This document shows, piece after piece, positions 5,688 through 36,979 of a stretch of 64,000 bases of DNA. Made by a program: the position numbers and the translations under genes. Every line of letters starts with the position of its first letter. Within the stretch, counting starts at the first letter, position 1. The notes beneath the pieces were generated by a model that worked only from the letters and a program-made list of their open reading frames with translations, was not told the DNA's origin and did no database searches. Where the stretch lies: assembly GCF_056746865.1 (NCBI RefSeq), contig NZ_CM163382.1; one strand, written 5' to 3'.

Positions 5688-7667
5688 TCAGTGAGATTTG
5701 ACTGATTTTACCCCCAGCCAGTCAATAATCCCCTGTGCCGCATGACGTCCTTCTGCCATTGCGGTAACCACCAGATCCGCACCACGCACGGCGTCACCAC
5801 CGGCGAAGATTTTCGGATTCGTGGTCTGATAACGGTACTGGCTTTCCACATCCGCGATGATGCGGCCCCATTTGTCTACCGTTACACCGTGCGACTCCAG
5901 CCACGGCATCCCGTGTGGATTGAAGCCAAACGCCATAATCACCGCGTCGGCTGGCATGACAAATTCACTGCCTTCCACCGGCACTGGACGCCGACGCCCC
6001 TGGGCATCCGGCTCGCCAAGACGCGTGCGCAGGAAACGAATTCCGCAAACGTGACCTTGCTCATTCAGCTCAAGCGCCACCGGCTGGACGTTAAATTCAA
6101 AGTTGGCCCCCTCTTCGCGGGCGTTCTTCACCTCTTTCTTCGAGCCTGGCATGTTAGCTTCATCACGACGATAAGCGCAGGTGACGTTACTCGCGCCGTG
6201 GCGCAGCGCGGTACGCACACAGTCCATCGCGGTGTCGCCGCCGCCCAGTACCACGACGTTGAGTCCGGCGGTATTGATAAACGGCTCTTCCGGTAGCTCT
6301 TCGAGTCCCATCACCTGTTTAGTGTTGGCGATGAGGAACGGCAGGGCGTCATAAACGCCCGGCGCATCTTCATTGGGTAAACCCGCTTTCATGGAACGGT
6401 AAGTGCCTACGCCAACGAAGACCGCGTCGTATTGTTCCAAAAGCGAATCCAAAGAGACATCTTTACCCACTTCACAATTGAGTTCGAAGTGAATCCCCAT
6501 CGCGCTGAAGATTTCCCGACGGCGTGCCAGCAGGGATTTATCCAGTTTGAAAGAAGGAATGCCGAAAGTGAGCAAGCCACCAATTTCTGGATGGCGATCG
6601 TACACCGTCACCGCCACGCCATTGCGGGTCAGAACATCCGCACAGGCCAGCCCTGCCGGACCTGCACCGATAATCGCCACCCGCTTGTCCACTTTGGTGA
6701 CATGGCTTAAGTCAGGACGCCAACCTTTCGCCAACGCCTGATCTGAAATGTAGCGTTCAATGTTGCCGATAGTTACCGCACCGTGCTCATCGCGAATAGT
6801 ACAGGCTCCTTCACACAAACGGTCTTGCGGACAAACGCGTCCGGTAATTTCCGGCAGGGTGTTGGTCTGGTGAGAAAGCTCGACGGCGGCGTCGATGTTT
6901 CCGGCTTTCACCAGTTCAATCCACTGCGGAATATGGTTATGCAGCGGGCAGGTCCATTCACAAACGCTGTGCTCGCCGCACTTAAGGCAGCGCGAGGCTT
7001 CCCGTTGTGCCTGATCGGCACGGAATGGCAGATAAATTTCATCAAAACCGGTTTTGCGCGCTTCAATCGCCAGTTTGTCCGGCTCGCCGCGCGCGGGCGT
7101 TGCCTGCATTTGCTCGACTTTACTCATTACCGGCATTTCTTGTGCCGCGGTACTGGCATGCCACGGTTGATGCTCCTGACGTGCGGTGCGCAAGCGGCGG
7201 GATTTCGCCATGCCGGAGAGTGCGGCGTCAGTGACCAGTTGCAGCGCGTCTGCCGGGCAATTCTCAACACAGGCAGGACCGTTTTCGCGCCCTGCACAAA
7301 GGTCGCATTTATGCGCCGTGGCTTTTACTTTGCCCGCCGCGACGGGTGTCAGGACGATTTGCATCGTACCAAACGGACAGGCCACCACGCAGGATTTACA
7401 GCCAATACACTTTTGCTGATTGACCTGAATGCTGTCATCAACGTGGCTGATTGCGCCATTAGGGCAGCTACGGGCGCAGGGCGCATCTTCACAATGGTGA
7501 CAGGTCACTGCACTACGTTGCTGCTGATGTTTGATAACCGTAATTCGGGGATGAAAATGGTGTTGGCTCAAGACATGTTGCTCATCATTGTGAGCCATGA
7601 CACAGGCGATTTCACAAGCATGACAACCCAGACATTGCTGACTGTTGGCCATAATAAAACGATTCAT
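5688..7667 (-). CDS. aegA: putative oxidoreductase AegA (Fe-S cluster and pyridine-nucleotide disulfide oxidoreductase domains)
   Basis: 659-aa ORF; N-terminal 4Fe-4S ferredoxin Cys clusters and C-terminal GltD-like FAD/NAD domain; length matches AegA. Confidence 0.9.
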   Translation of the reverse strand: MNRFIMANSQQCLGCHACEIACVMAHNDEQHVLSQHHFHPRITVIKHQQQRSAVTCHHCEDAPCARSCPNGAISHVDDSIQVNQQKCIGCKSCVVACPFGTMQIVLTPVAAGKVKATAHKCDLCAGRENGPACVENCPADALQLVTDAALSGMAKSRRLRTARQEHQPWHASTAAQEMPVMSKVEQMQATPARGEPDKLAIEARKTGFDEIYLPFRADQAQREASRCLKCGEHSVCEWTCPLHNHIPQWIELVKAGNIDAAVELSHQTNTLPEITGRVCPQDRLCEGACTIRDEHGAVTIGNIERYISDQALAKGWRPDLSHVTKVDKRVAIIGAGPAGLACADVLTRNGVAVTVYDRHPEIGGLLTFGIPSFKLDKSLLARRREIFSAMGIHFELNCEVGKDVSLDSLLEQYDAVFVGVGTYRSMKAGLPNEDAPGVYDALPFLIANTKQVMGLEELPEEPFINTAGLNVVVLGGGDTAMDCVRTALRHGASNVTCAYRRDEANMPGSKKEVKNAREEGANFEFNVQPVALELNEQGHVCGIRFLRTRLGEPDAQGRRRPVPVEGSEFVMPADAVIMAFGFNPHGMPWLESHGVTVDKWGRIIADVESQYRYQTTNPKIFAGGDAVRGADLVVTAMAEGRHAAQGIIDWLGVKSVKSH

Positions 7668-22591: not shown

Positions 22592-23061
22592 TGAATCCAC
22601 TGAAAGCCGGTGATATCGCACCGAAATTTAGCTTGCCGGATCAAGACGGAGAACAAGTTAATTTGACCGACTTCCAGGGACAGCGTGTTCTGGTTTATTT
22701 CTACCCGAAAGCCATGACCCCCGGCTGTACCGTACAGGCCTGCGGCTTACGCGATAACATGGATGAGTTGAAAAAAGCGGGCGTTGATGTGCTGGGTATC
22801 AGCACCGATAAACCCGAAAAACTCTCCCGTTTTGCGGAAAAAGAGCTGCTTAACTTTACGCTCCTGTCTGATGAGGACCACCAGGTGTGCGAACAATTCG
22901 GCGTCTGGGGTGAAAAGTCCTTCATGGGCAAAACCTACGATGGTATTCATCGCATCAGCTTCCTGATTGACGCTGATGGCAAAATCGAACATGTCTTTGA
23001 CGATTTCAAAACCAGCAATCACCACGACGTTGTGCTGAACTGGCTGAAAGAACACGCCTGA
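22591..23061 (+). CDS. bcp: thiol peroxidase / bacterioferritin comigratory protein (peroxiredoxin Bcp)
   Basis: 156-aa ORF; peroxiredoxin motif PKAMTPGCT; start ATG overlaps the gcvR stop (ATGA). Confidence 0.95.
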   Translation: MNPLKAGDIAPKFSLPDQDGEQVNLTDFQGQRVLVYFYPKAMTPGCTVQACGLRDNMDELKKAGVDVLGISTDKPEKLSRFAEKELLNFTLLSDEDHQVCEQFGVWGEKSFMGKTYDGIHRISFLIDADGKIEHVFDDFKTSNHHDVVLNWLKEHA

Positions 23062-23115
23062 TTACTTTGCTCCATTCCGTGCTGGCTGCGCTTGCGGTCA
23101 GCACACCTCACTTCT

Positions 23116-23131
23116 CGTGATCAAGATCACA
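23116..23131. promoter_or_regulatory. CRP-like palindrome upstream of the hyf promoter
   Basis: cGTGA-tcaaga-TCACa matches the CRP consensus TGTGA-N6-TCACA at 9/10 core positions, about 140 bp upstream of the sigma-54 element. Confidence 0.4.
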
Positions 23132-23255
23132 TTCTCGCTTTCCCCTGCGACACGGGTGTCGAATTCATTTTTTGCTGAACGTTAATGACCATCATTTTTG
23201 TACCGTTCAGAATACAGTTAATTCATAACCTATTGAATATATTAAATTAATAAGA

Positions 23256-23273
23256 CTGGCATCCTTTATGCAA
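23256..23273 (+). promoter_or_regulatory. sigma-54 (-24/-12) promoter of the hyf operon
   Basis: cTGGCAtcctttaTGCAa fits the TGGCAC-N5-TTGCA spacing; about 40 bp upstream of hyfA, consistent with the sigma-54 activator HyfR encoded in the operon. Confidence 0.6.
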
Positions 23274-23313
23274 TATGAAATGCAATGTTTCATATCATTT
23301 TCAAGGAGCCGAC

Positions 23314-23931
23314 ATGAACCGCTTTGTGGTGGCCGAACCACTGTGGTGTACAGGATGTAATACCTGTCTCGCTGCCTGTTCGGACGTGCATAAAACGCAA
23401 GGTTTACAGCAACACCCGCGCCTGGCCCTGGCGAAGACGTCAACACTCACTGCCCCTGTCGTGTGTCATCACTGTGAGGAAGCCCCTTGCCTGCAGGTCT
23501 GCCCGGTCAATGCCATCTCCCAGAGGGATGATGCGATCCAACTCAACGAAAGCCTCTGTATTGGCTGCAAGCTTTGTGCCGTGGTCTGCCCATTTGGCGC
23601 AATCAGCGCTTCAGGAAGCCGTCCGGTGAATGCCCCTGCGCAATATGTTTTTCAGGCTGAGGGCTCACTCAAAGACGGCGAAGAAAACGCGCCGACCCAA
23701 CATGCTTTGCTGCGCTGGGAACCGGGTGTCCAGACCGTCGCGGTGAAATGCGACCTGTGTGATTTCTTGCCAGAAGGTCCGGCCTGCGTTCGCGCTTGCC
23801 CGAATCAGGCGTTACGGCTGATCACCGACGATAGCCTGCAACGTCAGATGAAAGAAAAACAGCGCATTGCCGCAAGCTGGTTTGCCAATGGCGGGGAGGA
23901 TCCCCTTTCCCTCACTCAGGAGCAACGCTAA
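23314..23931 (+). CDS. hyfA: hydrogenase-4 component A (4Fe-4S ferredoxin-type subunit)
   Basis: ORF 23275-23931; start placed at ATG 23314 preceded by AAGGAG (MNRFVVAEPLWCTGCNTCLAAC...), 205 aa; multiple CxxCxxCxxxCP motifs. Confidence 0.9.
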   Translation: MNRFVVAEPLWCTGCNTCLAACSDVHKTQGLQQHPRLALAKTSTLTAPVVCHHCEEAPCLQVCPVNAISQRDDAIQLNESLCIGCKLCAVVCPFGAISASGSRPVNAPAQYVFQAEGSLKDGEENAPTQHALLRWEPGVQTVAVKCDLCDFLPEGPACVRACPNQALRLITDDSLQRQMKEKQRIAASWFANGGEDPLSLTQEQR

Positions 23932-25949
23932 TGGATGCCCTGCAATTATTAACCTGGTCGCTGATCCTCTATCTGTTTGCCAGTCTGGCTTCGCTGTTTT
24001 TACTCGGTCTGGACAGACTGGCTATTAAGCTTTCCGGCATCACATCGCTGGTGGGTGGCGTGATTGGCATCATCAGCGGAATTACGCAATTACATGCAGG
24101 CGTAATTTTAGTCGCCCGTTTTGCCACGCCTTTTGACTTTGCCGATTTAACCCTGCGAATGGATAGCCTCTCGGCATTTATGGTGCTGGTTATCTCCTTG
24201 CTGGTGGTGGTTTGTTCGCTCTATTCATTGACTTATATGCGCGAATACGAGGGCAAAGGCGCGGCGGCGATGGGCTTCTTTATGAATCTTTTCATCGCAT
24301 CGATGGTTGCCCTGCTGGTGATGGACAACGCTTTTTGGTTCATCGTGCTGTTTGAAATGATGTCGCTGTCTTCCTGGTTTCTGGTCATTGCCAGGCAGGA
24401 TAAAACGTCAATCAACGCTGGCATGCTCTACTTTTTTATCGCCCACGCCGGATCGGTACTGATTATGATCGCCTTCTTGCTGATGGGGCGCGAAAGCGGC
24501 AGCCTCGATTTTGCCAGTTTCCGCACGCTTTCACTTTCTCCGGGGCTGGCGTCGGCGGTGTTCCTGCTGGCCTTCTTTGGTTTTGGCGCGAAAGCCGGGA
24601 TGATGCCGTTGCACAGCTGGTTGCCACGCGCTCACCCTGCCGCACCATCGCACGCTTCGGCGTTGATGTCTGGCGTAATGGTCAAAATCGGTATTTTCGG
24701 CATCCTGAAAGTAGCGATGGACCTGCTGGCGCAAACGGGTTTGCCGCTGTGGTGGGGCATTCTGGTGATGGCGATCGGCGCAATCTCCGCGCTCCTGGGC
24801 GTGCTGTATGCGCTGGCGGAACAGGATATCAAACGGCTGCTGGCCTGGAGTACCGTCGAAAACGTCGGCATTATTTTGCTGGCGGTCGGTGTGGCGATGG
24901 TCGGTCTGTCACTGCACGACCCGCTGCTCACCGTTGTTGGACTGCTCGGCGCGCTGTTTCATCTGCTCAACCATGCGCTGTTCAAAGGGCTGCTGTTTCT
25001 CGGCGCGGGTGCGATTATTTCGCGTTTGCATACCCACGACATGGAAAAAATGGGGGCACTGGCGAAACGTATGCCGTGGACAGCCGCAGCATGCCTGATT
25101 GGTTGCCTCGCGATATCTGCTATTCCTCCGCTGAATGGTTTTATCAGCGAATGGTACACCTGGCAGTCGCTGTTCTCACTAAGTCGTGTGGAAGCCGTAG
25201 CGCTACAACTTGCGGGTCCTATTGCTATGGTGATGCTGGCAGTCACTGGTGGGCTGGCAGTAATGTGCTTCGTCAAAATGTACGGTATTACTTTCTGTGG
25301 AGCGCCGCGCAGTACACACGCTGAAGAGGCACAGGAAGTGCCGAATACGATGATCGTCGCCATGCTACTGCTCGCGGCACTCTGCGTATTCATTGCGCTT
25401 AGTGCCAGTTGGCTGGCACCGAAGATAATGCACATTGCCCATGCGTTTACCAATACCCCTCCCGTCACTGTCGCCAGCGGAATAGCACTTGTACCAGGCA
25501 CGTTTCATACACGGGTCACTCCCTCATTACTGTTGCTGTTACTACTGGCGATGCCTTTGCTGCCTGGCCTTTACTGGCTGTGGTGTCGTTCGCGCCGCGC
25601 AGCGTTTCGTCGCACAGGAGATGCCTGGGCATGCGGCTACGGCTGGGAAAATGCGATGGCCCCGTCAGGCAATGGCGTGATGCAGCCGCTGCGTGTGGTC
25701 TTTTGTGCGCTATTTCGTCTACGACAACAGCTCGACCCTACGCTGAGGCTAAATAAAGGTCTTGCGCACGTCACCGCCAGGGCTCAGAGCACAGAACCCT
25801 TCTGGGATGAGCGGGTGATCCGCCCCATCGTGAGCGCCACCCAACGGCTGGCCAAAGAAGTACAGCATCTGCAAAGCGGCGACTTTCGTCTCTATTGCCT
25901 GTATGTGGTCGCCGCACTGGTTGTGCTGCTAATCGCTATTGCCGTCTAA
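23931..25949 (+). CDS. hyfB: hydrogenase-4 component B (NuoL/antiporter-like membrane subunit)
   Basis: 672-aa polytopic membrane ORF; start overlaps the hyfA stop. Confidence 0.9.
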   Translation: MDALQLLTWSLILYLFASLASLFLLGLDRLAIKLSGITSLVGGVIGIISGITQLHAGVILVARFATPFDFADLTLRMDSLSAFMVLVISLLVVVCSLYSLTYMREYEGKGAAAMGFFMNLFIASMVALLVMDNAFWFIVLFEMMSLSSWFLVIARQDKTSINAGMLYFFIAHAGSVLIMIAFLLMGRESGSLDFASFRTLSLSPGLASAVFLLAFFGFGAKAGMMPLHSWLPRAHPAAPSHASALMSGVMVKIGIFGILKVAMDLLAQTGLPLWWGILVMAIGAISALLGVLYALAEQDIKRLLAWSTVENVGIILLAVGVAMVGLSLHDPLLTVVGLLGALFHLLNHALFKGLLFLGAGAIISRLHTHDMEKMGALAKRMPWTAAACLIGCLAISAIPPLNGFISEWYTWQSLFSLSRVEAVALQLAGPIAMVMLAVTGGLAVMCFVKMYGITFCGAPRSTHAEEAQEVPNTMIVAMLLLAALCVFIALSASWLAPKIMHIAHAFTNTPPVTVASGIALVPGTFHTRVTPSLLLLLLLAMPLLPGLYWLWCRSRRAAFRRTGDAWACGYGWENAMAPSGNGVMQPLRVVFCALFRLRQQLDPTLRLNKGLAHVTARAQSTEPFWDERVIRPIVSATQRLAKEVQHLQSGDFRLYCLYVVAALVVLLIAIAV

Positions 25950-25959
25950 GGAAATCACC

Positions 25960-26907
25960 ATGAGACAAACTCTTTGCGACGGATATCTGGTCATTTTTGC
26001 GTTAGCACAGGCCGTGATTCTGCTGGTGCTAACCCCGCTTTTTACGGGGATTTCCCGGCAGATACGCGCGCGTATGCACTCCCGTCGCGGACCGGGGATC
26101 TGGCAGGATTATCGCGATATCCACAAACTGTTTAAACGCCAGGAAGTTGCGCCGACATCTTCAGGTCTGATGTTCCGCCTGATGCCGTGGGTATTAATCA
26201 GCAGCATGCTGGTGCTGGCGATGGCCCTACCACTATTTATTACTGTTTCCCCTTTTGCGGGCGGCGGCGATCTGATCACCCTTATCTATCTTCTTGCCCT
26301 GTTTCGTTTTTTCTTTGCTCTTTCCGGGCTGGATACCGGAAGCCCCTTTGCGGGAGTCGGTGCCAGTCGCGAGTTGACGCTCGGCATTCTGGTCGAACCC
26401 ATGCTCATTCTCTCACTGCTGGTATTGGCGCTGATAGCGGATTCCACGCATATCGAGATGATCAGCAATACGCTGGCGACGGGCTGGAACTCGCCGCTAA
26501 CCACCGTACTGGCGTTACTGGCCTGTGGTTTTGCCTGCTTCATTGAGATGGGAAAAATTCCCTTTGATGTTGCTGAAGCAGAACAGGAATTACAGGAAGG
26601 CCCGCTGACCGAATATTCCGGTGCCGGGCTGGCGCTGGCGAAATGGGGGCTGGGGCTGAAACAGGTCGTGATGGCATCACTGTTTGTGGCCCTGTTTCTG
26701 CCCTTTGGGCGCGCGCAAGAGCTTTCTCTCACCTGCCTGCTGACTTCACTTGTCGTTACGCTGCTCAAGGTTTTGCTGATTTTTGTACTGGCCTCAATCG
26801 CAGAAAACACGCTGGCACGCGGGCGTTTTTTACTCATTCACCATGTGACCTGGCTTGGCTTCAGCCTTGCTGCGCTTGCCTGGGTCTTCTGGTTAACCGG
26901 TCTGTAA
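25960..26907 (+). CDS. hyfC: hydrogenase-4 component C (NuoH-like membrane subunit)
   Basis: ORF 25939-26907; start placed at ATG 25960 (MRQTLCDGYLVIFALAQ...), 315 aa. Confidence 0.9.
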   Translation: MRQTLCDGYLVIFALAQAVILLVLTPLFTGISRQIRARMHSRRGPGIWQDYRDIHKLFKRQEVAPTSSGLMFRLMPWVLISSMLVLAMALPLFITVSPFAGGGDLITLIYLLALFRFFFALSGLDTGSPFAGVGASRELTLGILVEPMLILSLLVLALIADSTHIEMISNTLATGWNSPLTTVLALLACGFACFIEMGKIPFDVAEAEQELQEGPLTEYSGAGLALAKWGLGLKQVVMASLFVALFLPFGRAQELSLTCLLTSLVVTLLKVLLIFVLASIAENTLARGRFLLIHHVTWLGFSLAALAWVFWLTGL

Positions 26908-26923
26908 GGAGCACTGACGGAAT

Positions 26924-28363
26924 ATGGAAAATCTTGCTCTGACGACGTTATTGCTGCCTTTTATCGGCGCACTGGTCGTTTCGTTTTCGCCACAACGTCG
27001 GGCCGCCGAATGGGGAGTTTTGTTCGCCGCGCTGACCACGCTGTGCATGTTGTCACTGATCTCCGCGTTTTATCAGGCCGATAAAGTTGCCGTCACGTTG
27101 ACGTTGGTCAACGTGGGGGATGTGGCGTTGTTTGGCCTGGTCATTGATCGCGTGAGTACGCTGATTCTGTTTGTGGTGGTGTTTCTCGGTTTGCTGGTCA
27201 CGATCTACTCCACGGGTTATCTGACGGATAAAAATCGCGAACACCCGCATAACGGCACGAATCGTTATTACGCATTTTTGCTGGTGTTTATCGGCGCGAT
27301 GGCGGGACTGGTACTCTCCTCGACGCTGCTCGGTCAGTTGTTGTTTTTTGAAATTACGGGCGGCTGCTCCTGGGCGTTGATCAGTTATTACCAGAGCGAT
27401 AAAGCGCAGCGTTCAGCACTAAAAGCGTTGCTTATCACTCATATCGGTTCGCTGGGGTTGTATCTTGCCGCCGCCACGCTGTTTTTGCAGACCGGAACGT
27501 TTGCGCTCAGCGCGATGAGCGAGTTACACGGCGACGCACGCTATCTGGTTTATGGTGGCATCCTGTTTGCCGCGTGGGGGAAATCGGCCCAGCTACCGAT
27601 GCAAGCGTGGCTACCGGATGCAATGGAAGCGCCAACACCGATCAGCGCCTATCTCCACGCCGCATCGATGGTGAAAGTGGGCGTTTACATTTTTGCCCGT
27701 GCCATTATCGACGGCGGCAATATCCCGCATGTGATTGGCGGCGTTGGCATGGTTATGGCACTGGTCACCATTCTTTATGGCTTCCTGATGTATTTGCCAC
27801 AGCAGGATATGAAGCGGTTGCTGGCCTGGTCGACCATCACTCAACTTGGCTGGATGTTTTTCGGCTTGTCGCTCTCCATCTTCGGTTCGCGGCTGGCGCT
27901 GGAGGGCAGCATCGCCTACATCGTCAACCACGCGTTCGCTAAAAGCCTGTTTTTCCTTGTAGCAGGTGCGCTGAGTTACAGCTGCGGCACGCGCTTGTTG
28001 CCGCGTCTGCGTGGCGTATTGCACACCCTGCCGTTGCCTGGCGTGGGTTTCTGCGTGGCAGCGCTGGCAATTACCGGCGTGCCGCCGTTCAACGGCTTCT
28101 TCAGTAAATTCCCGCTGTTTGCCGCCGGTTTTGCGTTGTCAGTGGAGTACTGGATCCTGCTGCCCGCCATGATTCTGCTGATGATTGAATCGGTCGCCAG
28201 TTTCGCCTGGTTTATTCGCTGGTTTGGTCGCGTCGTGCCTGGCAAACCGAGCGAGGCCGTCGCCGATGCCGCACCGCTGCCAGGATCAATGCGCCTGGTG
28301 TTGATTGTACTGATTGTGATGTCGCTGATTTCCAGCGTAATCGCCGCGACCTGGTTGCAGTAA
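26924..28363 (+). CDS. hyfD: hydrogenase-4 component D (antiporter-like membrane subunit)
   Basis: 479-aa polytopic membrane ORF; length matches HyfD. Confidence 0.9.
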   Translation: MENLALTTLLLPFIGALVVSFSPQRRAAEWGVLFAALTTLCMLSLISAFYQADKVAVTLTLVNVGDVALFGLVIDRVSTLILFVVVFLGLLVTIYSTGYLTDKNREHPHNGTNRYYAFLLVFIGAMAGLVLSSTLLGQLLFFEITGGCSWALISYYQSDKAQRSALKALLITHIGSLGLYLAAATLFLQTGTFALSAMSELHGDARYLVYGGILFAAWGKSAQLPMQAWLPDAMEAPTPISAYLHAASMVKVGVYIFARAIIDGGNIPHVIGGVGMVMALVTILYGFLMYLPQQDMKRLLAWSTITQLGWMFFGLSLSIFGSRLALEGSIAYIVNHAFAKSLFFLVAGALSYSCGTRLLPRLRGVLHTLPLPGVGFCVAALAITGVPPFNGFFSKFPLFAAGFALSVEYWILLPAMILLMIESVASFAWFIRWFGRVVPGKPSEAVADAAPLPGSMRLVLIVLIVMSLISSVIAATWLQ

Positions 28364-28374
28364 GGAGATGATGA

Positions 28375-29025
28375 ATGACCGGTTCTATGATCGTAAATAA
28401 TCTGGCGGGACTGATGATGCTGACATCGCTGTTTGTGATTAGCGTCAAAAGCTATCGCCTGTCATGCGGATTTTACGCCTGCCAGTCGCTGGTGCTGGTG
28501 TCTATTTTCGCCACTCTCTCGTGCCTGTTCGCCGCAGAGCAACTGCTGATCTGGTCCGCCAGCGCCTTTATCACCAAAGTGCTGCTGGTACCGTTAATCA
28601 TGACTTACGCTGCACGAAATATTCCCCAGAACATCCCGGAAAAAGCGTTATTCGGTCCGGCAATGATGACACTGCTCGCGGCGTTAATTGTCCTGCTTTG
28701 CGCATTTGTCGTTCAGCCCGTGAAGCTACCGATGGCTACCGGGCTGAAACCGGCGCTGGCGGTGGCGTTAGGTCATTTTCTGCTTGGCCTGCTGTGCATT
28801 GTCAGCCAGCGCAATATCCTGCGGCAAATTTTTGGTTACTGCCTGATGGAAAACGGCTCCCATCTGGTACTGGCGCTTCTTGCCTGGCGTGCACCGGAAC
28901 TGGTGGAAATTGGTATCGCTACCGACGCCATCTTCGCCGTCATTGTGATGGTGTTACTGGCAAGAAAAATATGGCGTACCCACGGCACGCTGGACGTGAA
29001 CAACTTGACCGCGCTGAAGGGATAA
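28375..29025 (+). CDS. hyfE: hydrogenase-4 component E (membrane subunit)
   Basis: 216-aa hydrophobic ORF; length matches HyfE. Confidence 0.9.
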
Positions 29026-29029
29026 TGAG

Positions 29030-30610
29030 ATGAGTTATTCTGTGATGTTCGCTTTACTCCTGCTCACGCCGCTGCTTTTTTCGCTGCTCTGTTTTGCCTG
29101 CCGGAAACGGGGGCACTCTGCGACTCGCACGGTGACAGTACTACATGGCTTAGGGATCACACTGCTGCTGATTCTGGCACTGTGGGTGGTCCAAACTGCC
29201 GCTGATGCGGGAGAAATATTCGCTGCGGGACTGTGGCTTCACATTGATGGTCTGGGCGGTTTGTTCCTCGCCATTCTTGGTGTGATTGGCTTTCTCACCG
29301 GTGTTTACTCGATTGGCTACATGCGTCATGAAGTGGCACACGGCGAGCTTTCACCCGTTACGCTGTGCGATTACTACGGTTTCTTCCATCTGTTTTTGTT
29401 CACCATGCTGCTGGTTGTTACCAGCAATAACCTGATTGTGATGTGGGCGGCAATCGAAGCCACCACCTTAAGCTCGGCGTTTCTGGTAGGCATTTACGGT
29501 CAGCGTTCATCGCTGGAAGCTGCATGGAAGTACATCATTATTTGTACTGTTGGTGTCGCTTTTGGTCTGTTCGGTACCGTGCTGGTATACGCCAACGCCG
29601 CCAGCGTTATGCCGCAGGCAGAAATGGCGATATTCTGGAGCGAGGTTCTTAAGCAATCGTCCTTGCTTGACCCAACATTAATGCTGTTGGCCTTTGTGTT
29701 TGTGCTAATTGGCTTTGGCACCAAAACCGGGCTTTTTCCCATGCACGCCTGGCTGCCGGATGCTCACAGTGAAGCGCCGAGTCCGGTCAGCGCCCTGCTC
29801 TCCGCCGTATTGCTGAACTGCGCGCTGTTGGTGCTTATTCGCTATTACATCATTATTTGCCAGGCCATCGGCAGCGATTTCCCCAACCGGTTGTTGCTCA
29901 TCTTCGGCATGTTGTCGGTTGCCGTGGCGGCATTTTTCATTCTGGTACAGCGGGACATTAAGCGTCTGCTGGCGTACTCCAGCGTGGAGAACATGGGACT
30001 GGTCGCGGTGGCGTTAGGCATTGGCGGGCCGCTGGGAATTTTTGCCGCGCTGCTGCACACCTTAAACCACAGTCTGGCAAAAACGCTGTTGTTCTGCGGT
30101 TCCGGCAATGTACTGCTCAAGTACGGCACGCGCGATCTCAACGTCGTCTGTGGGATGCTCAAAATCATGCCATTTACCGCCGTGTTGTTTGGCGGCGGTG
30201 CGCTGGCGCTGGCCGGGATGCCGCCCTTCAACATTTTTCTTAGCGAATTTATGACCGTTACCGCCGGACTGGCACGTAATCACCTGCTGATTATCGTCCT
30301 GCTGTTATTGCTGTTAACGCTGGTGCTGGCGGGCCTGGTACGGATGGCTGCGCGGGTGTTAATGGCGAAACCGCCGCAGGCCGTTAACCGGGGTGAACTT
30401 GGCTGGTTGACCACCTCGCCAATGGTGATTCTGCTGGTCATGATGCTGGCGATGGGAACGCATATTCCACAACCTGTCATCAGGATCCTGGCAGGCGCTT
30501 CCACTATAGTCCTCTCAGGGACGCACGACCTGCCTGCACAACGTAGCACCTGGCATGATTTTTTGCCTTCAGGCACCGCATCTGTTTCGGAGAAACACAG
30601 TGAACGTTAA
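29030..30610 (+). CDS. hyfF: hydrogenase-4 component F (NuoN/antiporter-like membrane subunit)
   Basis: 526-aa polytopic membrane ORF; length matches HyfF. Confidence 0.9.
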
Positions 30611-32315
30611 TTCATCGTCAAATCGTGGCGAAGCGATTCTCGCCGCCCTGAAAACGCAGTTCCCCGGCGCGGTGCTGGATGAAGAGCGACAAACGCCTGA
30701 ACAGGTCACCATTACGGTGAAAATCAATCTGCTGCCTGACGTTGTGCATTATCTTTATTATCAACATGATGGCTGGCTTCCAGTCCTGTTTGGCAACGAC
30801 GAGCGGACACTTAACGGTCATTACGCGGTTTATTATGCCCTTTCTATGGAAGGGGCCGAAAAATGCTGGATCGTGGTGAAGGCACTGGTCGATGCCGACA
30901 GTCGGGAGTTTCCGTCAGTCACACCGCGCGTCCCTGCCGCGGTCTGGGGCGAGCGAGAAATTCGCGATATGTACGGGCTGATTCCGGTTGGCCTGCCGGA
31001 TCAGCGTCGGCTGGTGTTGCCCGATGACTGGCCGGAAGATATGCATCCGCTGCGCAAAGACGCGATGGATTATCGACTGCGCCCAGAACCGACGACTGAT
31101 ACCGAAACGTATCCGTTTATCAACGAGGGCAACAGCGATGCGCGGGTGATCCCTGTCGGCCCGCTGCATATCACCTCCGATGAACCAGGTCACTTCCGCT
31201 TGTTTGTGGATGGCGAGCAAATTGTCGATGCTGATTACCGCCTGTTTTATGTCCATCGCGGCATGGAGAAACTGGCAGAAACGCGGATGGGCTACAACGA
31301 AGTGACCTTCTTATCCGACCGCGTGTGTGGGATTTGCGGTTTTGCCCACAGTGTGGCCTATACCAACTCGGTTGAAAATGCACTTGGGATTGAGGTGCCG
31401 CAACGAGCGCATACTATTCGCTCGATTCTGCTGGAAGTCGAACGGCTACACAGTCATTTGCTCAACCTTGGTCTCTCCTGCCATTTTGTTGGTTTTGATA
31501 CCGGCTTTATGCAATTTTTCCGCGTGCGGGAAAAGTCGATGACAATGGCGGAATTGCTGACCGGGTCGCGTAAAACCTACGGTCTGAATCTGATTGGTGG
31601 TGTTCGCCGCGATATTCTCAAAGAGCAACGTCTGCAAACGCTGAAACTGGTGCGCGAGATGCGAGCCGACGTGTCGGAGCTGGTAGAGATGCTGCTTGCC
31701 ACGCCGAATATGGAACAACGCACTCAGGGCATTGGCATTCTCGACCGACAAATCGCCCGTGATTATAGCCCCGTAGGGCCGCTGATCCGCGGCAGTGGTT
31801 TTGCCCGTGATTTGCGCTTTGATCACCCCTACGCCGACTACGGCAATATTCCCAAAACGCTGTTTACCTTTACCGGCGGCGATGTCTTCTCCCGCGTGAT
31901 GGTCCGTGTAAAAGAGACGTTTGATTCGCTGGCAATGCTGGAATTTGCCCTCGACAACATGCCAGATACCCCACTGCTGACCGAAGGCTTTAGCTATAAA
32001 CCTCACGCATTCGCGCTGGGCTTTGTTGAAGCGCCACGTGGTGAAGACGTGCACTGGAGCATGCTCGGTGATAACCAAAAATTGTTCCGCTGGCGCTGTC
32101 GTGCCGCCACCTACGCCAACTGGCCAGTGCTACGTTACATGCTGCGCGGCAATACCGTTTCTGACGCACCGCTGATTATCGGTAGCCTTGATCCCTGCTA
32201 CTCCTGTACCGACCGTGTGACGCTGGTTGATGTGCGCAAGCGCCAGTCAAAAACCGTGCCGTATAAAGAGATCGAACGCTACGGCATTGATCGTAACCGT
32301 TCGCCGCTGAAGTAA
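30600..32315 (+). CDS. hyfG: hydrogenase-4 large ([NiFe] catalytic) subunit
   Basis: ORF 30555-32315; start placed at GTG 30600 ((M)[17 protein letters not shown]...), overlapping the hyfF 3' end by 11 nt; N-terminal [10 protein letters not shown] and C-terminal DPCYSC [NiFe] ligand motifs. Exact start uncertain. Confidence 0.85.
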
Positions 32316-32324
32316 GGACAGAAG

Positions 32325-32870
32325 ATGCTGAAGTTACTGAAAACTATTATGCGCGCCGGAACCGCGACGGTGAAATATCCCTTCGCGCCACTGGAGGTCA
32401 GCCCAGGCTTTCGCGGGAAACCGGACCTGATGCCCAGCCAATGTATTGCCTGCGGTGCCTGCGCCTGTGCTTGTCCGGCAAATGCGCTGACTATCCAGAC
32501 CGACGACCAGCAAAATACGCGCACCTGGCAGCTCTATCTGGGGCGTTGTATTTACTGCGGACGTTGTGAAGAAGTGTGCCCGACCAGAGCCATTCAGCTT
32601 ACCAATAACTTTGAACTGACCGTCACCAATAAAGCCGATCTCTATACCCGCGCGACGTTCCATCTACAACGTTGCAGCCGTTGCGAACGCCCGTTTGCCC
32701 CGCAAAAAACCGTCGCACTGGCTGCAGAACTGTTGGCACAGCAACAAAATGCACCACAAAACCGCGAAATGTTACGGGCGCAAGCGAGCGTCTGCCCGGA
32801 ATGCAAACAGCGCGCGACGCTGATCAACGACGACACAGATGAACCGCTGGTGGCTAAGGAGCAGCTATGA
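32325..32870 (+). CDS. hyfH: hydrogenase-4 component H (2x[4Fe-4S] ferredoxin-type subunit)
   Basis: 181-aa ORF with two CxxCxxCxxxCP clusters. Confidence 0.9.
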
Positions 32871-33625
32871 GTCCAGTGCTTACGCAACATGTCAGCCAGC
32901 CCATCACGCTGGACGAGCAAACGCAAAAGATGAAGCAGCATTTGCTACAGGATATCCGTCGCTCGGCTTACGTTTATCGCGTCGATTGCGGCGGCTGCAA
33001 CGCCTGTGAAATCGAAATTTTTGCTGCCATCACACCCGTATTCGACGCAGAACGTTTTGGCATTAAGGTTGTTTCATCACCGCGTCACGCCGATATTTTG
33101 TTATTTACTGGCGCAGTCACCCGGGCGATGCGTATGCCTGCACTTCGGGCGTATGAGTCTGCCCCCGATCATAAAATTTGTGTTTCCTACGGCGCGTGCG
33201 GTGTCGGCGGCGGTATTTTCCACGATCTTTACAGCGTCTGGGGCGGCAGCGACACCATTGTCCCCATTGATGTTTGGATCCCCGGCTGCCCGCCAACACC
33301 GGCCGCCACCATTCACGGTTTCGCCGTGGCGCTCGGTTTGCTGCAACAGAAGATTCACGCGGTGGATTATCGCGATCCCACCGGGGAGACCATGCAACCG
33401 CTGTGGCCGCAGATCCCGCCATCACAGCGTATCGCCATTGAGCGAGAAGCGAGGCGGCTGGCGGGCTATCGTCAGGGGCGAGAAATTTGCGATCGGCTCC
33501 TGCGCCATTTAAGCGACGATCCTACAGGAAATCGGGTTAACACCTGGTTGCGCGATGCCGACGATCCGCGTCTCAATAGTATCGTTCAGCAACTCTTTCG
33601 CGTACTCCGGGGGTTACATGACTGA
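32867..33625 (+). CDS. hyfI: hydrogenase-4 small subunit (NuoB-like)
   Basis: 252-aa ORF; NuoB-type Cys motifs (CGGCNAC, GACG, CPP); start overlaps the hyfH stop. Confidence 0.9.
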
Positions 33626-34031
33626 AGAGTGCAGGGAAATTGTTTTCTGGACGCTGCGAAAAAAGTTTGTCGCCAGTAGCGACGAGATGCCGGAACACAG
33701 CTCCCAGGTAATGTATTACTCGCTAGCTATCGGCCATCACGTTGGCGTGATTGATTGTCTGAATGTCGCCTTCCGCTGCCCACTGACGGAATACGAAGAT
33801 TGGCTTGCACTGGTCGAAGAGGAGCAAGCCCGACGTAAGATGCTGGGGGTGATGACCTTTGGTGAGATTGTTATTGACGCCAGCCACACCACCCTGTTGA
33901 CCCGGGCATTCGCGCCACTGGCAGATGACGCGACGTCTGTGTGGCAGGCGCGTAGCATTCAATTCATTCATCTGTTGGATGAAATTGTGCAGGAACCGGC
34001 CATCTATCTGATGGCCAGAAAAATTGCGTGA
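33618..34031 (+). CDS. hyfJ: hydrogenase-4 component J (HycH-like maturation/assembly protein)
   Basis: ORF 33555-34031; start placed at ATG 33618 ([17 protein letters not shown]...), 137 aa. Confidence 0.85.
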
Positions 34032-34060
34032 GAAGGATTTCTCATTAATAAGGACTGTTG

Positions 34061-36073
34061 ATGGCTATGTCAGACGAGGCGATGTTTGCCCCGCCGCAAG
34101 GAATAACAATTGAAGCGGTAAACGGAATGCTCGCGGAGCGGTTAGCGCAGAAACACGGCAAGGCGTCTTTATTACGCGCCTTCATCCCGCTGCCGCCGCC
34201 GTTCAGCCCGGTACAACTTATTGAACTGCACGTTCTCAAAAGCAACTTCTATTACCGCTACCATGATGATGGCAGCGATGTGACGGCAACAGCAGAGTAT
34301 CAGGGCGAGATGGTCGATTATTCGCGTCACGCCGTCCTTCTCGGCAGTAGTGGAATGGCGGAGCTACGCTTTATTCGCACCCACGGCAGTCGTTTTACTC
34401 CCCAGGATTGCACACTGTTTAACTGGCTGGCACACATAATCACTCCGGTTCTGCAATCATGGCTCAATGATGAAGAACAGCAGGTGGCGCTGCGTTTGCT
34501 GGAGAAAGATCGCGATCATCATCGGGTACTGGTGGATATCACTAATGCAGTGTTGTCACATCTTGATCTCGACGATCTGATCGCTGACGTCGCTCGTGAG
34601 ATCCATCATTTTTTCGGTCTGGCTTCAGTCAGTATGGTACTGGGCGATCATCGAAAGAACGAGAAGTTCAGCCTGTGGTGCAGCGATCTTTCTGCCTCAC
34701 ATTGTGCGTGTCTGCCACGCTGTATGCCTGGCGAAAGTGTATTGCTGACACAAACGCTACAAACCCGACAACCGACCTTGACGCACCGTGCAGACGATCT
34801 GTTTCTCTGGCAACGCGACCCGTTATTACACTTACTTGCATCTAACGGCTGCGAATCTGCGCTCCTTATACCGCTCACCTTTGGCAACCATACACCGGGC
34901 ACATTGTTGCTGGCGCATACCTCTTCCACTCTCTTTAGTGAGGAAAACTGCCAGCTACTACAACATATTGCCGATCGCATCGCTATTGCCGTTGGCAATG
35001 CCGATGCCTGGCGCAGCATGACCGATTTGCAGGAAAGCTTGCAGCAAGAAAACCACCAGCTTAGCGAGCAGCTCCTTTCGAATCTGGGCGTCGGTGACAT
35101 TATCTATCAAAGCCAGGCAATGGAAGATTTGCTCCAGCAGGTAGATATTGTGGCGAAGAGCGACAGTACGGTGTTGATTTGTGGTGAAACCGGAACCGGC
35201 AAAGAGGTGATCGCCAGAGCGATCCATCAACTTAGCCCACGACGCGACAAGCCACTGGTCAAAATCAACTGCGCTGCCATCCCCGCCAGTCTTCTGGAAA
35301 GTGAGTTATTCGGTCATGACAAAGGGGCATTTACTGGTGCGATTAATACCCATCGTGGTCGTTTTGAAATTGCCGATGGCGGCACGTTGTTTCTCGATGA
35401 AATTGGCGATCTGCCGTTAGAACTTCAGCCTAAACTGCTGCGCGTATTGCAGGAACGGGAGATTGAGCGTCTCGGCGGGAGTAGAACGATCCCGGTAAAT
35501 GTCAGAGTCATTGCCGCCACCAACCGTGATTTGTGGCAAATGGTTGAAGATCGCCAGTTTCGCAGCGATCTCTTTTATCGCCTGAATGTCTTCCCACTGG
35601 AATTGCCCCCGCTACGCGACCGTCCGGAAGATATCCCTCTTTTAGCAAAACATTTCACGCAAAAAATGGCGCGCCATATGAATCGCGCAATTGACGCCAT
35701 CCCGACCGAGGCGCTACGCCAGTTGATGTCGTGGGACTGGCCGGGCAACGTGCGCGAGCTGGAAAACGTGATTGAGCGGGCGGTACTACTGACTCGCGGT
35801 AACAGTCTGAATTTACATCTTAATGTCCGACAAAGCCGTTTACTGCCGACGCTAAATGAAGATTCAGCGCTTCGCAGTTCAATGGCACAGTTGCTGCACC
35901 CGACGACGCCAGAGAATGACGAAGAAGAACGTCAGCGCATTGTTCAGGTATTGCGAGAAACCAATGGCATTGTTGCCGGGCCCCGTGGCGCGGCGACACG
36001 ATTAGGGATGAAGCGCACCACGCTGCTGTCACGAATGCAGCGTCTGGGGATCTCGGTTCGCGAGGTGTTGTAA
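34061..36073 (+). CDS. hyfR: sigma-54-dependent transcriptional activator of the hyf operon (FhlA-like)
   Basis: ORF 34058-36073; start at ATG 34061 (MAMSDEAMF...), 670 aa; AAA+ sigma-54 activator motifs ([14 protein letters not shown]) and C-terminal HTH. Confidence 0.9.
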
Positions 36074-36094
36074 TCTGCTTTTGCAGGAGTATTC

Positions 36095-36943
36095 ATGAGA
36101 AACAAACTCTCTTTCGACTTGCAGTTGAGCGCCAGAAAAGCGGCAATCGCTGAACGGATTGCCGCCCATAAAATTGCCCGCAGCAAAGTGTCGGTCTTTT
36201 TAATGGCGATGTCCGCTGGCGTGTTTATGGCGATCGGATTTACTTTTTACCTTTCCGTTATCGCCGATGCCCCGTCTTCACAGGCATTAACCCATCTGGT
36301 GGGTGGCCTTTGCTTTACACTCGGCTTTATTTTGCTGGCGGTTTGCGGCACCAGCCTGTTCACCTCGTCGGTAATGACGGTGATGGCAAAAAGTCGGGGC
36401 GTTATTAGCTGGCGAACATGGCTGATTAATGCACTTCTGGTGGCCTGCGGTAATCTGGCAGGTATTGCCTGTTTCAGTTTGTTAATCTGGTTTTCCGGGC
36501 TGGTGATGAGTGAAAACGCGATGTGGGGAGTCGCGGTTTTACACTGCGCCGAGGGCAAAATGCATCATACATTTACTGAATCTGTCAGCCTCGGCATTAT
36601 GTGCAATCTGATGGTTTGCCTGGCGCTGTGGATGAGTTATTGCGGGCGTTCATTATGCGACAAAATCGTCGCCATGATTTTGCCCATCACCCTGTTTGTC
36701 GCCAGTGGCTTTGAGCACTGTATCGCCAATTTGTTTGTGATTCCGTTCGCCATTGCCATTCGCCATTTCGCCCCTCCCCCCTTCTGGCAACTGGCGCACA
36801 GTAGCGCAGACAATTTTCCGGCACTGACGGTCAGCCATTTTATTACCGCCAATCTGCTCCCGGTGATGCTGGGTAATATTATCGGCGGTGCAGTGCTGGT
36901 GAGTATTTGTTATCGGGCTATTTATTTACGTCAGGAACCCTAA
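36095..36943 (+). CDS. focB: formate channel FocB (FNT family)
   Basis: 282-aa polytopic ORF; formate/nitrite transporter family features; length matches FocB. Confidence 0.9.
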   Translation: MRNKLSFDLQLSARKAAIAERIAAHKIARSKVSVFLMAMSAGVFMAIGFTFYLSVIADAPSSQALTHLVGGLCFTLGFILLAVCGTSLFTSSVMTVMAKSRGVISWRTWLINALLVACGNLAGIACFSLLIWFSGLVMSENAMWGVAVLHCAEGKMHHTFTESVSLGIMCNLMVCLALWMSYCGRSLCDKIVAMILPITLFVASGFEHCIANLFVIPFAIAIRHFAPPPFWQLAHSSADNFPALTVSHFITANLLPVMLGNIIGGAVLVSICYRAIYLRQEP

Positions 36944-36948
36944 AAATC

Positions 36949-36974
36949 AGCCCGGCGAAACAGTTCGTCGGGCT
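36949..36974. terminator. hairpin terminator between convergent focB and perM
   Basis: AGCCCGGCG-aaacagtt-CGTCGGGCT imperfect hairpin in the 36-bp gap between the two stop codons. Confidence 0.5.
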
Positions 36975-36979
36975 GAAGA

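Follow-up and report, generated by a model that had tools for sequence, protein, structure and literature searches.

The window analysed here is the entire 64,000-nucleotide stretch of DNA, derived from a non-K-12 strain of E. coli, and the 252-bp segment at positions 23062-23313 is exactly the spacer between two of its genes, namely bcp, with the stop codon ending at 23061, and hyfA, with the ATG at 23314. The surrounding region (22900-23500) is 100% identical to the corresponding sequences of several clinical and environmental isolates, in which bcp and hyfA are annotated. The spacer is followed, on the plus strand, by 12 intact, tightly packed genes, hyfABCDEFGHIJ-hyfR-focB (23314-36943). 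An ORF-by-ORF comparison with K-12 shows that all 12 reading frames are full length and of the K-12 size, with the exception of hyfG that encodes 16 additional amino acids; the 12 proteins are 98-100% identical to their K-12 counterparts, and neighbouring genes overlap by at most 11 nt and are separated by at most 29 nt. The hyfR gene for the sigma-54 activator, which the sequence-only reading of this DNA had placed at the end of the operon, is indeed intact there, encoding a protein of 670 aa of which 664 are identical to K-12. The operon includes no gene for a maturation protease (hyfK/hycI-like): hyfJ ends at 34031 and hyfR starts at 34061, with 29 nt between them. The E. coli hyf operon has been described as lacking such a gene as well (Finney et al.), and HycI, which is encoded elsewhere, may be the substitute protease.

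The published data on sigma-54 and CRP match the earlier assignment of the spacer to hyf control. They support its interpretation as the segment that holds the promoter and the enhancer of the hydrogenase-4 (hyf) operon, in which a sigma-54 promoter is preceded by a CRP site. This control region has already been characterised, and in that respect the finding is an ordinary one. At the hyfA end of the spacer, the Shine-Dalgarno sequence AAGGAG (23303-23308, plus strand), located 5 nt 5' of the ATG, is invariant across genera except for a single A-to-G change in Kosakonia (AGGGAG). At the opposite end, the RNA of the plus strand is predicted to fold into a terminator-like hairpin (23079-23104) with an 11-bp stem and a GCUU loop (-25.2 kcal/mol, z = -3.4) but without a clear U tract; this hairpin is also kept in E. 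coli strains that lack hyf and is probably a 3'-end element of bcp that is not part of hyf. An Rfam scan of 22800-23600 yielded only a match to PhrS that was rejected as sub-threshold (13.6 bits, E = 0.67; the gathering score is 37).

The center of the promoter is the -24/-12 element TGGCATCCTTTATGCA on the plus strand at 23257-23272, with the GG at 23258-59 and the GC at 23270-71 (GG-N10-GC), which matches the sigma-54 consensus (TGGCAC-N5-TTGCW-like) in nine of 11 positions. The TGGCA-N7-TGCA pattern with sigma-54 spacing that had been picked out from the letters was thus recovered at the same coordinates, and two published genome-wide surveys agree with it. In K-12 MG1655, sigma-54 ChIP-seq identified a site upstream of hyfA (OS23, ATGGCATCCTTTATGCA) with a fold-above-threshold value of 16, which is flagged in that study as an experimentally confirmed EcoCyc promoter; in genomic SELEX with the RpoN holoenzyme, the bcp>hyfA spacer is among the strongest peaks (92% in the absence of NtrC; in its presence, this is the 100% reference peak). 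The 16-mer is identical in K-12, the base directly 5' of TGGCA being C in the window and A in K-12, and through this identity the published data point to occupancy of the window element by the sigma-54 holoenzyme. The element is kept in Citrobacter and Kosakonia at -54 to -58 from the ATG. Of the 43 related hyfA/hycB loci that were scanned, two cut-off loci having been left out, 28 have TGGYA-N7-TGC 50-100 nt 5' of the start codon.

Transcription of hyfA would start at 23283-23284 on the plus strand, 30-31 nt 5' of the ATG, as judged from a ChIP-seq prediction and from primer extension. The primer extension reportedly mapped the start 30 bp upstream of hyfA, which would be position 23284 of the window, and purified HyfR is said to bind the hyf upstream region. 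The start predicted in the sigma-54 ChIP-seq study, 19 nt 3' of the motif center and 31 nt before hyfA (position 23283), fits the -24/-12 element, so that the comparison with published promoter data proposed in the sequence-only reading came out in its favor; neither of the refuting outcomes named there, an incompatible start or a lack of CRP dependence, is indicated by the published work. The -12 element and the transcription start are overlapped by a direct repeat, ATGCAAT (23268-23274 and 23280-23286), that is specific to E. coli and is not conserved in Citrobacter or Kosakonia. Separate transcription of hyfR-focB has been suggested; a second good sigma-54-type match, TGGCACAGTTGCTGCA, which is located on the plus strand at 35883-35898, inside the 3' end of hyfR and approximately 212 nt 5' of focB, could be related to it. 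This second match is absent from the main-text tables of the K-12 sigma-54 ChIP-seq study.

The CRP site, cGTGATCAAGATCACA, is located at 23116-23131 (center at 23123.5, about -160 from the hyfA start), with its GTGA-N6-TCACA part, GTGATCAAGATCACA, at 23117-23131; it agrees with the consensus in nine of the ten half-site positions, 14 of the 16 core positions and 16 of the 22 positions of the extended site. The earlier reading had put a CRP-type palindrome about 140 bp upstream of the promoter, and the measured distance of 133 bp between the CRP center and the -24 element is acceptably close. The 16-mer is identical in K-12, and the position and half-sites are kept in Citrobacter (TGTGA-N6-TCACA) and Kosakonia (TTTGA-N6-TCACA), with variation in the N6 bases. 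CRP ChIP-seq in the ETEC strain H10407 recovered exactly CGTGATCAAGATCACA at hyfA; furthermore, hyfA is a catalogued target of cAMP-CRP and came up in CRP SELEX, so that occupancy of this sequence by CRP is documented both in the published ETEC data and by SELEX. With its center at about -160 from the sigma-54 start, and at about -96 from that of a proposed sigma-70 promoter discussed below, the palindrome is away from the class I and class II positions; it qualifies as a CRP site, although not as a class I or II activator site of the classical kind. Optimal HyfR-driven expression of hyf reportedly required cAMP-CRP. Outside the spacer, TGTGAGCCATGACACA at 7589-7604 has exactly the sequence of the site that CRP ChIP-seq in ETEC H10407 assigned to aegA/narQ, and the window accordingly holds a second published CRP target.

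Three further elements are found between the CRP site and the -24/-12 element. The sequence CGACA-CGGG-TGTCG at 23148-23161 (center at about -129) is a putative upstream activating sequence (UAS) of the FhlA/HyfR type and the sole match to CGWCA-N4-TGWCG in the 64-kb window. The centers of the CRP site and the UAS are 31 bp apart, and there is no gap between the two sites in any of the genera compared, that is, the distance is fixed. We compared the UAS with the FhlA-controlled hycA-hypA, hydN and fdhF regions of K-12 and, for 16 related loci, with the 190 nt that precede the -24 element. A 5-N4-5 unit (CGWCA-N4-TGWCG or close variants) is present 80-140 bp 5' of the -24 element in most or nearly all of the related hyf/hyc-type loci as well as in the hyc-hyp, hydN and fdhF regions of K-12, as exemplified by CGTCAttacTGTCG, CGACActtaTGACG and CGTCAtaaaTGACG in the compared regions; the form of the UAS across genera is CGACAC-N2-4-TGYCG. 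Because the 5-N4-5 motif is common to the FhlA-controlled regions, we infer that 23148-23161 is the activating sequence for HyfR/FhlA; with hyfR intact and the UAS matching the unit of the FhlA/HyfR regions, the locus appears to encompass both a cognate activator and its site.

The near-invariant block TGACCATCATTTTTGT at 23186-23201 (center at about -90) is, in the form TGACCATCAYTTTTGT, the most conserved part of the spacer, with 15 of the 16 positions invariant across Escherichia, Citrobacter and Kosakonia. It resembles GATGACATCGTTTTT from the activator region of K-12 hydN, and a second activator element is its most likely identity. The -35 element (ATGACC) of the proposed sigma-70 promoter ATGACC-17-CAGAAT overlaps the block as well. 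The block is flanked by an E. coli-specific inverted repeat, CTGAACG/CGTTCAG (23175-23181 and 23204-23210), that is not conserved in Citrobacter or Kosakonia. Closer to the promoter, the minus strand contains an IHF-like site, TAACCTATTGAAT (23226-23238, center at about -52), which deviates from the IHF-type consensus YAANNNNTTGATW at one position and precedes an A/T-rich tract. This site forms a conserved block across genera and is a perfect match to the consensus in Citrobacter (TAACCAGTTGATT); moreover, ATAAC-N3-4-TTGA(A/T) recurs 20-35 bp 5' of the -24 element in many of the 16 related loci compared, which fits a conserved IHF bend. A consensus scan of 22900-23500 also flagged CGACACGGGTGTCG with its T-rich tail as terminator-like, a candidate that we rejected: it is the sequence (CGACACTAATGCCG), not the pairing, that is conserved in the other genera, and there are no compensatory changes.

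The conservation of these elements was traced by a HyfA scan with one genome per species that yielded 45 loci, none of them from Escherichia or Shigella. The six closest loci, four from Citrobacter and two from Kosakonia, all have bcp directly upstream. When the window is compared with these two genera, six conserved blocks are apparent over a poorly conserved background, namely the CRP palindrome, the UAS, the -90 block, the IHF-like site, TGGCAY-N6-TGC, and the Shine-Dalgarno sequence with the start codon. To the known promoter, this cross-genus comparison adds a compact enhancer map consisting of the CRP site, the activator site, the -90 block, the IHF-like site and the -24/-12 element.

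Within E. coli, the spacer of the window is 96% identical to that of K-12 MG1655, and all ten substitutions are outside the motifs. Among six E. coli alleles (the window, K-12 and four sampled strains), 18 positions of the spacer vary, none of which are in the UAS or the -90 block; the CRP site has one variable position, in its non-consensus spacer, and the IHF-like site has one, in its N4. One of the sampled strains, JX21CE35, carries a GG>AG change in the -24 element (TAGCATCC...), at the equivalent of window position 23258, which is a probable natural promoter-down mutation of hyfA; the promoter would then not be intact in every isolate.

The hyf-focB cassette is missing altogether in 1127 of the 5424 complete E. 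coli genomes (~21%), including those of ST131. The hyf-less genomes match only the first ~50 nt of the spacer, and bcp is then directly followed by yfgO. What these genomes retain of the region upstream of hyf is a decayed sequence corresponding to window positions 23107 to approximately 23184; in this remnant, a 19-bp deletion removes the left half of the CRP site, and the UAS reads CAACACTCGTTTCA. Such decay is expected under relaxed constraint, and because the CRP site and the UAS have both decayed in the lineages that lost hyf, it argues that they are maintained for hyf and not for bcp. The erosion of the enhancer in hyf-less lineages of E. coli can thus be regarded as a natural experiment. 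The hexamer GCTGAA is found at both edges of the segment that is missing from the hyf-less strains (23174-23179 and 36972-36977), suggesting that hyf-focB was lost by deletion between short repeats.

Sigma-54 and CRP have been shown to occupy these exact sequences, and the five elements of the enhancer map are conserved; on this basis, we propose, with a probability of about 0.9 for the scheme as a whole, that hyf is transcribed from a sigma-54 promoter served by a HyfR/FhlA enhancer, an IHF-type bend and accessory CRP. The sigma-54 RNA polymerase would form a closed complex at the -24/-12 element (23257-23272), with transcription starting approximately 30 nt before hyfA, and the formation of the open complex would require an ATP-dependent enhancer-binding protein, either the operon's own HyfR or its paralogue FhlA. 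The putative binding site for HyfR or FhlA is CGACA-N4-TGTCG at about -129, probably together with the -90 block. An IHF-type bend at about -52 would loop the activator onto the polymerase, and ATP hydrolysis by the activator would then open the promoter; the identity of the proteins at the two upstream blocks and at the IHF-like site is predicted from motif resemblance and conservation. Finally, cAMP-CRP, bound in a conserved register at about -160, 31 bp or three helical turns 5' of the activator site, would be an accessory factor that ties the expression of hyf to carbon status. The site is too far upstream, and the promoter of the wrong kind, for the usual class I or class II contact, and CRP would most likely shape the upstream DNA or stabilise the activator assembly; this mode of action, including its positive or negative sign, is conjectural.

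That the motifs are functionless chance matches would be in line with the pattern counts in the 64 kb, which are within the shuffle expectation: two matches to TGGCA-N7-TGCA where 1.4 are expected, two to GTGA-N6-TCACA (0.39 expected), and four to TGTGA-N6-TCACA with at most one mismatch (2.4 expected). Neither motif is significant by itself in a sequence of this length. The case for the motifs being real comes from their occurrence in the right order and orientation within a single 252-bp spacer, from the conservation across genera and from the published binding data. Five ordered elements that three genera share, that are occupied both in vivo and in vitro, and that have decayed where hyf was lost leave virtually nothing to coincidence, and the conservation together with the binding data already refutes this explanation. 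The palindrome could alternatively be read as an FNR site that mediates the anaerobic induction of hyf: the TGAT-N4-ATCA core is common to the FNR (TTGAT-N4-ATCAA) and CRP consensus sequences, eight of the ten FNR positions match, the Kosakonia sequence TTTGAC...GATCACA is a hybrid, and a genome-wide study of FNR includes hyfA among the predicted high-quality sites with earlier evidence of FNR regulation. The same study, however, saw no ChIP-seq peak of FNR at hyfA and classifies this site as silent; the discriminating outer positions, G and C, are of the CRP type (GTGA/TCACA) in E. coli and Citrobacter and do not qualify the site as one for FNR; and CRP occupies the palindrome in CRP SELEX as well as in vivo in ETEC, in the latter case on the exact sequence. 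We therefore consider a role for FNR in place of CRP to be highly improbable.

Two other alternatives accept CRP as the ligand and concern the promoter that it serves and the direction of its effect. The CRP site might belong to a separate sigma-70 promoter, ATGACC-17-CAGAAT (23185-23213), rather than to the sigma-54 promoter, given that SELEX with the RpoD holoenzyme has a peak in the bcp>hyfA spacer for which exactly this promoter was proposed, and that the -35-like ATGACC is within the most conserved block. Against this, a consensus scan found no sigma-70-type promoter in 22900-23500, and the -10 element CAGAAT is not kept in Citrobacter or Kosakonia although the -90 block is. The usual class I positions of CRP are -61.5, -71.5, -82.5 and -92.5, and the CRP center, at about -96 from the sigma-70 start, is off these positions as well. 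Taken together, these observations make a dedicated sigma-70 promoter improbable. Somewhat less improbable, although still unlikely, is that CRP dampens the sigma-54 promoter instead of helping it, as is the case at dctA, glnAp2 and Pu; CRP-cAMP lowers every sigma-54 promoter reviewed in PMC3900584, and AR1-alphaCTD contact blocks the access of the activator. On the other side, hyfA is catalogued as a CRP target, the CRP site is 5' of the activator site in a fixed register rather than between the activator and the polymerase, and Self et al. 2004 reportedly found cAMP-CRP to be required for optimal HyfR-driven expression. We favor a sigma-54 promoter with a HyfR/FhlA enhancer and accessory CRP as the best description of the spacer.

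The intactness of the operon is a different matter from its activity. The sequence-only reading had described 12 intact, tightly coupled genes, which is borne out, and had concluded that the operon looks fully functional, which does not follow: the reading frames of K-12 are equally intact and no Hyd-4 activity has been detected in that strain, so that intact frames do not demonstrate function. Finney et al. found no Hyd-4 activity in engineered E. coli even with a T5 promoter before hyfA and with the protease supplied, and in the literature the inactivity of E. coli FHL-2 is called unexplained. Finney et al. worked with derivatives of laboratory strains of K-12, such as MG1655, which carries the short allele of hyfG. 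HyfG (30600-32315) consists of 571 aa in the window compared to 555 aa in K-12 MG1655; the difference is a 48-nt in-frame deletion in K-12 that corresponds to window positions 31755-31802 (plus strand) and removes 16 aa between two ARD repeats, including the universally conserved GPxxRxSG. Full-length hyfG is present in 2179 of the 4294 E. coli genomes that have the gene, and the other ~2115 (~49%), among them the K-12 derivatives C600, HB101 and JM83, have the deletion.

No gaps are needed to align the 16-aa segment with four solved structures, those of E. coli HycE (ARDFSNVGPMVRASGH in the FHL structure 7Z0S), the ND7/49-kDa subunit of complex I (AWDWGCSGPILRGSGI), Pyrococcus MbhL and Thermus Nqo4. 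Because this gap-free alignment extends from the archaeal MBH through HycE to the 49-kDa subunit of mitochondrial complex I, the short HyfG is best viewed, as judged by these alignments, as a derived form with a deletion in a universally conserved core element. Our literature searches returned no description of this deletion, which is not proof that it is unreported. In the window, hyfG is full length and the sigma-54/CRP/HyfR control region is intact. It is conceivable, albeit with odds that we put well below even, that the failure to detect Hyd-4 activity in E. coli is partly an artefact of the strain studied and that strains with full-length hyfG could make active FHL-2 when HyfR is induced. 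Should the K-12 allele of hyfG prove defective, two decades of negative results on hydrogenase-4 would need to be re-tested in full-length strains. Offering a partial account of the Hyd-4 puzzle that can be tested, the hyfG polymorphism is more consequential than the promoter finding, in which little is at stake given that a mapped promoter and a catalogued CRP site were re-identified. The main use of the latter is as a positive control, in that a reading of the raw sequence recovered real regulatory elements.

Among the characterised systems, the closest is the hyfA promoter of E. coli K-12 itself (EcoCyc hyfAp; Skibinski et al. 2002), which is this very locus, likewise preceded by bcp, and has an identical CRP 16-mer, activator site, -90 block, -24/-12 16-mer and leader; the differences are the ten spacer substitutions outside the motifs and the hyfG gene, which is full length in the window and encodes a protein 16 aa shorter in K-12. 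The FhlA-activated formate regulon (hycA, hypA, hydN and fdhF) resembles hyf in its sigma-54 -24/-12 promoters and in the arrangement of TGTCG/CGACA/TGACA/CGTCA units 80-140 bp upstream, with an A/T-rich IHF-type region in between. Unlike hyf, these four regions contain no CRP-consensus site that could be seen by eye. Where they have clusters of units, hyf has a single clean 5-N4-5 unit along with the -90 block. Similarly to hyf, the dctA, glnAp2 and Pu promoters are enhancer-dependent promoters on which cAMP-CRP acts and for which the class I/II route is impossible. At those promoters, however, the effect of CRP is repression, and Pu lacks any CRP site; at hyf, the CRP effect is reportedly positive, and, in contrast to all three, a near-consensus, conserved and occupied CRP site lies 5' of the activator site.
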